The notes under the pieces: generated by a model
Told to the model about the DNA's origin: nothing
The model's database searches: none
The model's input: only the letters and a program-made list of their open reading frames with translations
DNA from: Lama guanicoe
Lineage: Eukaryota
Assembly (NCBI GenBank): GCA_013239625.1
Contig: MU053504.1
Coordinates: 1,428,001-1,492,000 of the forward strand
Direction of reading: 5' to 3'
DNA length: 64,000 bases
In this document: positions 35,301 through 38,300 of the stretch, piece after piece
Position numbering within the stretch: the first letter of the stretch is position 1
Layout of the letters: each line of letters opens with the position of its first letter
Translations under genes and position numbers: made by a program

Positions 35301-38300
35301 GGACAGGCCAGGATCTCTGCCCGGAGGCAAGATGCACCTCCCTGGAGCCAGGTCTGGGGCAGCAGGCGAATGAAGCGGGCTACCTGGGGCTCAGGCAAGA
35401 GGTTCAGCACTGGGGTCTCTGGGTCCGAGTTGGCAGGAAACACCTGGGAGCATCAAGTCCTTTGTCAGGGTAGCTTGAACCCCAGCAGCAGCCCAGCCCA
35501 GGACCCAGGGAAGCAGCTCAGGCCTCCCCATTCACTGAAAAACCCACACTGGTGGGCTTATCTGGAGACTTGCACTCTGTGTCAAACACAGACCCCTGCC
35601 CACAGCCTTTGCCAACGGGCAGCCCTAGGCAGCCAAGCTTTCTGGCTCAGTCACAGCTCCTTGGACAAGTATGGCCACATGACTCAGGAGCAGCCAGTCC
35701 TGAAGCTGGCCAGGACCTCACACTGTAGCCTGGGGTCAAAAGAGGTCCATGAGATAGAGAAGCCAGAGCTATGAGGAAGTGAGAAGTGATGCAAGGACCA
35801 GAAGCCCATTGCCAGAAGGGGTGTTTCAGCAGGAGACTGAGGCATGAAGTGGCACCCACTCCATGGAGAAAGTATTTGGGGAGGATATGTATATGGTCCA
35901 AAGCAGTGTGGCTCCTAAGGCTGCCTGCTGGGTACCATCCATCCTGACAACAATCCCCTTTCTCCTGGGATGCCCAAGTGGGCACCTATTCCTTGTCCTC
36001 AGAGGAGTCCCAGCCCAGCCCAGCCCCCTACAATGGGCCAGGAGCCCAACTCCCAGCATAAAAGGCCCCAGCCACCATGGGACCTCTCACCGCGTCCATC
36101 CCACTGCTGCGGTTCTTACTCCCCCACCAGGTCCGACTGTCATTGCTGAACTGGACCTTGTAAGATGTGACCCAGTCATACCTGGCAGGAAAGGTGGTGA
36201 GAGATCATGGTTGGTCCCCAGGACTCCCACCCCATCCCTCCTGAGTCTGCCCATGAACTTCCGGGCCTGGGGCTAGGCTGCCTCACCTCCAAATGGAGTT
36301 TCTGCCCTGGGTGATAATGCCTGAGAAGCGGGTGGGGTGCCTGGCGTCCACCTGAAGCCACGGCTCAACGTCCTGTTCCTCGGCACACCACGCCCCATCA
36401 AAAAGATCACCATCCTCCAGGCCTGACTGTGGGCACAGGACATAGTAATCAGAGCCAGGTGGGCAGTGTCGGGTAGGCCGGAACAGAAGGTGGGGAGGGG
36501 CAGGGAAGAAGGTGCTAGGGGTTGCCTTGCTCGGAGGCAAGGTTGCTGACCTGGATGTTGAGCCGTCCTCGGTGTGGTCCAAGACCAAAGGACTGGCTGC
36601 TAGATGCATCGAGCTGGTTATCTGAAACTCGCAGGGACTCCAGGCCCAAAGGGGGACAACCTGGGACAGGGCAGAGCAGCGAGATGGGACCAGAGAAAGA
36701 GTGGTCAGGGCAGGTGGGAAGCTGAGCCTAAGCTTGCCTGTGTGCTGGACAGGCTAGGGGCGTGTCTATGCCCGGGAGGCCAAGAGCTCCGTTAGTACAG
36801 GCCCGAGAGACTGCGGGTCTGGGCGAGGCCCCTGGAGGGGTGGTACCTGGTTCTTGCTTCTCAGGGAGGTCAAGGGCCCCTACAGGGCTGGTGGTCGTTG
36901 AAGGCCTGGCAGTCGTTGAAGGCCTTGCAGTCGTTGAAGGCCTGGCAGTTGTTGAAGGCCTGGCAGTCATTGAAGGCCTGGCAGTCACTGGCGGTATGGG
37001 GCGAATTAGCTTCTTTCGCTTCTTCACAATGACCTTTTTCTTCCTGATGACTCGAATCCGGATATGCTGTTCTGAGGTCCCTGGGGACCAGGGAACACAG
37101 CACCAGGGAAGGGAAGGATGGCACGAAACCCCAGATGGAGAGGTCTGCCCAAGAAAGCCCACAAGCCCACAACAGACCCCACCACAAGTATCTAACGACC
37201 TTAGCATGAACTGAAAGGCCCGCAGTCTGACCCCAACCCACCTCTCTAGTCACTTCCCTGGCTCCTTCTCCCCTCTGACATGACAACAGGCTTGGCCCTC
37301 GCCAATAAAGAGCGACACTGCCCCAGGAGCTATTTGCTTGCTACATAGGGCTGAATTTTTTCTTTACCTCCTTCTTTGCCCTGGCTGACCCCTCCCCTGT
37401 CATCCTATCCACCACTTCATTTTATTGCCTGATTTCCATTCTTCCTTCACATCTCAGCCCCCATGCCCTTCAAGGAGACTTCTTAGCTCCAGACTTGGTG
37501 TCATGCTCAAAGCCTCTGTGTCACCTCCATCATTGTGTCTGCCCACTAAGCTGAAATGTCCTGTCCTTCTTGGCTGCCCTCCTCTTCGGCTTTCCCTAAT
37601 TCAGAGAAACCCTTCCAGACCAGTTCCACCTGCCTCTCCTGAGAAGCTCTCCGTGGCTGCCATCCTCTTGCTTTCCCCTCCCTGCTCCCACATTTGAAAA
37701 GTTGGGAAGCCAGGCCACCTGCCTCTCAGCCTCCCTAGACAGTGTCCCGATCCTCCAGGCAGCCTCGCAAACCAGGCTGCTCCTCCTGTCCTCCGGCCCT
37801 TTCCTTCCTGCCCCCCCCCCCCCCTCAAGCTCTTCCCACATAGTCTGTCTCGCTCCGCGCCTTTTAGTCTCCCTGCCTCTGTCTGCATCTTTCTCCCCTC
37901 CTTCTGGTTCTGGCCTCAGTTTCCTCATCTGTGAAAAGGGAAGGTTTGGGGCTGGAAGAGGCAGCATTCCGCTGGCTCCTGTCCCAGGCCGACTGACTTG
38001 GTTTGGCCGGGAAGTGAGGCTGCTGAGTCAGCAGCCATTGCACGGGGAAGGGAGTGTGTGTGAGTGTGTGTGCGCGGGGAAGGGTCGCCACACAGGCGCC
38101 GGGCAGGGAGTGGGGTGTGTGCGGCGTGGAGGGGTGTGTGTGTGTGTGTGTGTGTGCGTGCGCGCGGGCCAGGGAAAGGTCGGCACACGGCGGGTGGGGG
38201 AGTGGGGCAACCGACTTGCGGGAGAAGCGGGCGGTGGGTCCGGGAACTCACCGTTCTCCTTCCCCGCGGGCGGCTGTGCCGGGCTGCTACGCGGGGCCGG

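Follow-up and report, generated by a model that had tools for sequence, protein, structure and literature searches.

The window analyzed here, a stretch of 64,000 nucleotides from Lama guanicoe (contig MU053504.1), contains the gene CPXM1 on its minus strand, to which all CPXM1 coordinates below refer. A model of 14 exons was reconstructed, running from an ATG at 38423 to a stop codon at 32364, with GT-AG borders at 13 of 13 introns and a product of 756 residues. The coding part of exon 1 (38252..38423) comprises the ATG, a signal-peptide-like start and a first stretch rich in Pro, Ser, Thr and Ala; exon 2 (36847..37080; 234 nt, AG/GT borders, phase 1-1) encodes a basic cluster followed by a linker; exons 3-6 (35293..36660) encode the discoidin (F5/8 type C) domain, placed right after the linker; and exons 7-14 (32364..35208) encode the M14 pseudopeptidase and transthyretin-like domains, up to the stop codon. 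The donor site of exon 2 (CAG|GTACCA, 36841-36849, minus strand) is far from the usual GTRAGT consensus.

The predicted protein is 95% identical to the muntjac CPXM1 and 93% identical to that of hippo over the full length, and 86-95% (mostly 88-95%) identical to 25 named placental CPXM1 proteins. In a CPXM1-only tree it formed a clade with nine cetartiodactyl CPXM1 sequences (100/99), outside the group of ruminants, whales and hippo (97/94), a position that points to camelids or suines. The motifs containing the zinc ligands and the catalytic Glu are kept (HGNE, LHGG and VELS, starting at residues 379, 515 and 611), and the translation contains DLNHNF, which we take to be position 145 of the CPXM1 pseudo-active site, with a His in place of the substrate-binding Arg145. 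Domain order, zinc-ligand motifs and the His at the Arg145 position are thus those of the mammalian M14 pseudopeptidase CPXM1 (CPX-1). According to a published review (PMC11266112, Table 2 for the substitution), Arg145 is replaced by His in CPXM1, and the protein, known in human and mouse, is secreted, inactive on test substrates, binds collagen III through its discoidin domain and has a role in adipogenesis. The gene model, the orthologue clade and the domain order support the identification as CPXM1 made in the first-pass annotation of this DNA, and its values for exon 2 (234 nt), for the protein (756 residues) and for the reading frame of the repeat described below were reproduced.

Exon 2 carries a tandem array, detected by Tandem Repeats Finder in the window at 36894-36986 with a period of 18, 5.2 copies and 93% matches. 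In codon register, the full units extend from 36988 to 36899 (36899..36988) and correspond to five 18-bp coding units of the form V/M/T-TARPS, residues 89-118 of the 756-residue model; the earlier placement at 36896..36985 therefore holds for the array and is shifted with respect to the codon-register units. The five units comprise 8 Thr, 5 Ser, 5 Pro, 5 Arg and 5 Ala. In the register of the first-pass annotation, they differ from the unit consensus by 0, 1, 0, 1 and 1 bases, in agreement with its statement of at most one mismatch per unit. A 14-nt core, with at most one mismatch allowed, was matched 5 times in the window, every time within the array, against 0.06 matches expected, and a count of 5 was reached in none of 100 shuffles; likewise, the best 72-nt segment at period 18 scored 67/72, whereas 50 shuffles of window positions 30001-40000 scored 37 at most. 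The five near-identical units are confirmed. No comparable repeat was found in the remaining CPXM1 exons, where the longest in-phase run was 4-9 nt, versus 18. The strand opposite to the gene is open across the array, with a 148-residue ORF bearing VVEGLA repeats (window 36768-37214, plus strand), an opening that most likely just follows from the repeat and the high GC content.

Immediately after the fifth unit lies a degenerate sixth one (36881..36898) encoding TTTSPV, which is the counterpart of a VTTSPA-type hexamer present in other placentals. It is identical to unit 5 at 13 of 18 positions (binomial P of about 1e-4 under local composition, for a single comparison picked after inspection). 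On the other side of the array, a polybasic cluster conserved in therian orthologues is encoded at 37010..37045. Since Pfam placed the discoidin (PF00754), M14 and transthyretin-like domains, in that order, in the muntjac and hippo orthologues, the array is flanked by the basic cluster on one side and by the discoidin domain on the other, as had been proposed and as the exon model also indicates.

The length of this linker was compared in one CPXM1 protein per therian species (n=80), taken among the matches listed in homologue searches and cluster look-ups (main cluster of 366 members), the linker being taken as the segment that follows the basic cluster and ends at the first discoidin-domain Cys; 78 of the 80 rows were parsed. 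No camelid or pig CPXM1 forms part of this set. The linker has 31 residues in 58 of the 78 parsed species, and likewise in both unparsed rows; the other lengths were 20 (two species), 25 (nine), 27 (one), 30 (three), 32, 33, 37, 41 and 43 residues. The 80 other therians thus span linkers of 20-43 residues, whereas the window protein has 55. Cattle, buffalo, deer, muntjac, serow and whales carry a single unit (VTARPS or VTARAS) followed by VTTSP; because these other artiodactyls have one unit, the gain in the window corresponds to four units, or 24 residues. The first-pass annotation had estimated an excess of about 22 residues over the human protein, which is right as a net figure: the human linker has its own gain of two residues (33 against 31), so that the 24 residues added over the one-unit artiodactyl state appear as 22. 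Human CPXM1 isoform 2 (P0158) shows an LT insertion after the basic cluster that is absent in chimp (CPXM1 of 732 residues), bonobo and the other fetched primates.

Two earlier descriptions of this segment have to be revised. The orthologous region, presented as non-repetitive, contains one unit plus the degenerate copy (13/18), and the repeat does not add a linker, given that a Pro/Thr linker is already present and is only lengthened. Conversely, none of the 80 therian orthologues, a set with no camelid or pig, showed a comparable array, contrary to what would be expected if five units were common to most mammals; among these species the array is restricted to the window lineage, as suggested originally. 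On the sequences compared, we regard the array as real and as restricted to that lineage. Smaller and more degenerate duplications occur at the same place in Phyllostomus hastatus (P0133; +12, 43 residues), Glossophaga mutica (P0015; +6, 37 residues) and Hippopotamus (P0132; +10, 41 residues), where a VT(A/S)RP / VTTSP motif is tandemly duplicated; judging from their place in the tree, which included Phyllostomus and hippo, these duplications are of independent origin. Conversely, the linker is six residues shorter in seven afrotherians, the armadillo and the beaver. Steps of six residues look over-represented when protein sequences are judged by eye, although the differences in pangolin (-1), jerboa (+1), shrew (-4), human (+2) and hippo (+10) are not multiples of six. 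The linker was also the least conserved region of CPXM1: across 18 orthologues its mean majority-residue frequency was 0.77, while that of the three folded domains was 0.95. We know of no function for the N-terminal region of CPXM1. From its composition and divergence, the linker would be disordered.

In human, the linker is already a carrier of O-glycans: an EXoO study assigns to CPXM1 O-glycopeptides beginning at T100, T104 and T113, all within the linker, with 10 spectra (PMC6243375; numbering of the fetched human record). CPXM1 also figures among the O-glycoproteins of another human study (PMC9587226), and in mouse Cpxm1 a further report places a site at T34, within the portion encoded by exon 1 (PMC10614836). 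By analogy with the human protein, the new units are likely O-glycosylated.

With regard to its age, the array shows three differences from the unit consensus in 90 bases, namely a C>T and a G>A at the only CpG of the unit and one synonymous C>A; altogether, two of the three are synonymous and one changes Thr to Met. Its longest perfect repeat is 20 nt. If neutral sites are assumed to change at 2e-9 per site and year, and ten times faster at CpG, and all copies to be simultaneous, a rough age of about 8 million years is obtained (95% range 1.7-24). This argues for an array that is old and interrupted rather than freshly expanding; the units are near-identical, as noted before, and the "recent" expansion then proposed probably means millions of years under the assumed rates. 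A hairpin-driven expansion was considered in view of the AGGCCT palindrome in each unit, and was rejected with a fold z-score of -0.27.

Our preferred reading, which we consider probable, is that slippage gave rise to an in-frame minisatellite, and that this made longer, with little functional consequence, a CPXM1 spacer that was under weak constraint and already carried O-glycans. One xTARPS unit and the degenerate 18-bp copy would have acted as a two-copy seed promoting misalignment, as suggested by the pattern of a degenerate copy together with repeated duplications in other lineages. Four duplications would then have taken place on the lineage leading to the animal of the window, after which two CpG decays and one transversion would have broken its regularity, so that the array is now fairly stable and probably common to close relatives. 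The extra Thr and Ser residues would be partly O-glycosylated, and the distance of the polybasic segment to the discoidin domain, which binds collagen, would increase, changing the function little or not at all. Neutrality is here the default assumption, as three unit differences are too few to tell.

An alternative, put forward in the first-pass annotation, is an actively polymorphic coding VNTR, in which individuals or sister species would differ in the number of units; the near-identity of the units might suggest this. Public sequencing runs were searched with window positions 36700-37200, and 49 sampled words were scored in the best 24 runs. Among these, 13 runs, under four organism labels and from four studies, held 49 of 49 words, and one run held 0.98. 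Eight of the 13 may have served as a source of the assembly, and the remaining five belong to two studies under one organism label. The 471 31-mers of the searched segment are all different, and each unit difference is private. In a four-unit genome, 30-48 of these 471 words would be missing, the probability that none of them was sampled being at most 0.033 (0.005 for three units); since the words are identical for every run, this probability does not multiply across runs. Measured indirectly, by shares of words only, this shows an allele of five units, or longer, under four organism labels. On the other hand, alleles with extra units may lose none of the 471 words, heterozygotes keep all of them, and the list of runs is ranked by best holders, hence animals with other alleles would be under-represented in it. 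Even so, the complete set of words in 13 runs, five of them not flagged as a possible source, together with an array of only five units, three interruptions and no perfect repeat beyond 20 nt, speaks against active variation, which we consider unlikely. A scan of metagenomes for the two-unit junction gave 0 matches.

A second, slightly less likely alternative is adaptive, namely that the array has been selected because dense O-glycans make the spacer stiffer and more extended, or keep proteases or heparan sulfate away from the polybasic cluster, thereby altering the action of CPXM1 in matrix and fat tissue; cleavage by proteases or binding of heparin at the basic cluster is conjecture. In favor of this alternative, the linker of the window protein has 17 Ser/Thr, whereas the orthologues have 7 in the median and at most 13, and these form a chain with gaps below six residues (17 residues; 11 Thr, 6 Ser), the longest of the set, the maximum among the 80 orthologues being 13; an effect on the glycan load is possible for that reason. 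Glycosylation of the human linker, the repeated duplication of the same motif in other lineages, and the collagen III binding and adipogenic activity of CPXM1 (as described in PMC11266112) point in the same direction.

By the mucin-domain rule of Malaker et al. (2022; PMC9209528), a segment of 50 residues needs 9 or more predicted O-glycosites, spaced by less than six residues. When every Ser/Thr is counted, which gives an upper bound, the window protein reaches 17, and Thr exceeds Ser in the chain (11 versus 6), as in the Thr-excess criterion of the same authors. Nevertheless, 9 of the 80 orthologues, cattle included, already reach at least 9. Furthermore, the whole-protein Thr+Ser content is 13.0%, versus 13.2% in muntjac and 12.3% in chimp, and the share in the N-terminal region is 0.22 in both the window protein and muntjac. 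Pajic et al. (2022; PMC9417175) place MUC7 at 20% or more and non-mucins at about 10%; as the window protein falls below the former benchmark, we do not class it as a new mucin. Moreover, two of the three mapped human O-glycan sites are Ala and Pro in the window protein, and one of the three changes within the units removes a Thr. The addition of clustered O-glycosylation sites, proposed in the first-pass annotation, is borne out as a gain of Ser/Thr within a region glycosylated in human, with no change in the Thr+Ser content of the whole protein.

An even bolder alternative, which we regard as improbable, would view the exon-2 linker as a cryptic 18-bp tuning repeat, resized repeatedly in leaf-nosed bats, hippo, afrotherians, armadillo and beaver, and most strongly in the window lineage, where a true short mucin domain would set anew both how far the polybasic segment lies from the collagen-binding domain and how well the two are shielded, and where the resulting effects on connective or fat tissue would have been selected.

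The weakest alternative, an assembly artefact or an exon 2 unused in mRNA, is in our view very improbable. In its favor, assemblies are error-prone at tandem repeats, and exon 2 is symmetric and could therefore be skipped in frame; RNA runs held 0.33, 0.29, and 0.14 or less of the words, which fits neither the 0.43 expected for the full exon nor the 0.25 for a one-unit exon decisively. Against it, the distinct 31-mers and private unit differences, with 13 runs holding every sampled word, make an artefact unlikely, and the basic-cluster pattern was present in 82 of 85 fetched proteins having the start motif and the start of the discoidin domain, the rest being two elephant proteins with the exon, outside the pattern, and a single dingo model without it.

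In kind, the array is ordinary and belongs to the common class of exonic tandem repeats. A review on exonic VNTRs or coding minisatellites (PMC12776774) puts the share of mammalian proteins with repetitive segments at about one third, and states that the copy number is variable in about 3-5% of these. With the latter, as described there, CPXM1 shares tandem units in a coding exon that preserve the frame, a copy difference between species (five units versus one in other artiodactyls) and its nature as a glycoprotein; it differs in that the array is very small, with five units, has no link to a trait and was compared between species only. Similarly, lineage-specific Thr/Ser/Pro-rich units in a secreted protein recall the de novo gain of mucins reported by Pajic et al. 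(2022; PMC9417175); whereas the hosts there are proline-rich SCPP proteins, CPXM1 is a matrix protein with several folded domains, and it has gained only 24 residues. CPXM1 is not named in the main text of that work. A study of seven camelids, which dates the split of Old and New World camelids to about 16.3 My, mentions CPXM1 solely among the one-to-one orthologues and screened for indels of less than 15 residues (PMC12127551), so it says nothing on the array. We found no report of the array in the literature, subscription journals and bioRxiv supplements aside; it is apparently undescribed, and annotations of camelids in databases may show the repeat.

If the slippage-based reading is true, the array provides a small and clean case of minisatellite growth from a two-copy seed within an O-glycosylated linker, and perhaps a clade marker, with no concept changed. 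It would be weightier if the five-unit linker altered the binding or processing of CPXM1, and the natural series of linkers of 25, 31, 37, 41, 43 and 55 residues constitutes a ready panel for the function of the N-terminal region.

Elsewhere in the window, three short SINE copies derived from tRNA-Ala were observed at 21881-21966 (minus strand), 30279-30374 (plus) and 50291-50387 (minus), being 78-88% mutually identical, and two of the three were scored as tRNA-Ala by ARAGORN; we presume that they belong to the vic-1 family of camelids. SINEBase gives vic-1 as a simple SINE of camels (PMC3531059). The TMEM239-like ORF among those described next had no exact match in the protein collection. ORF pieces at 11803-12480 (plus), 46912-47367 (plus) and about 55300-58900 (minus) resemble EBF4, TMEM239 and PCED1A, which we take to be the usual neighbors of CPXM1. 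Finally, two old AT-rich interspersed repeat copies in inverted orientation, at 28401-28877 and 61676-62166, are 68% identical over about 500 bases and presumably correspond to L1 fragments.
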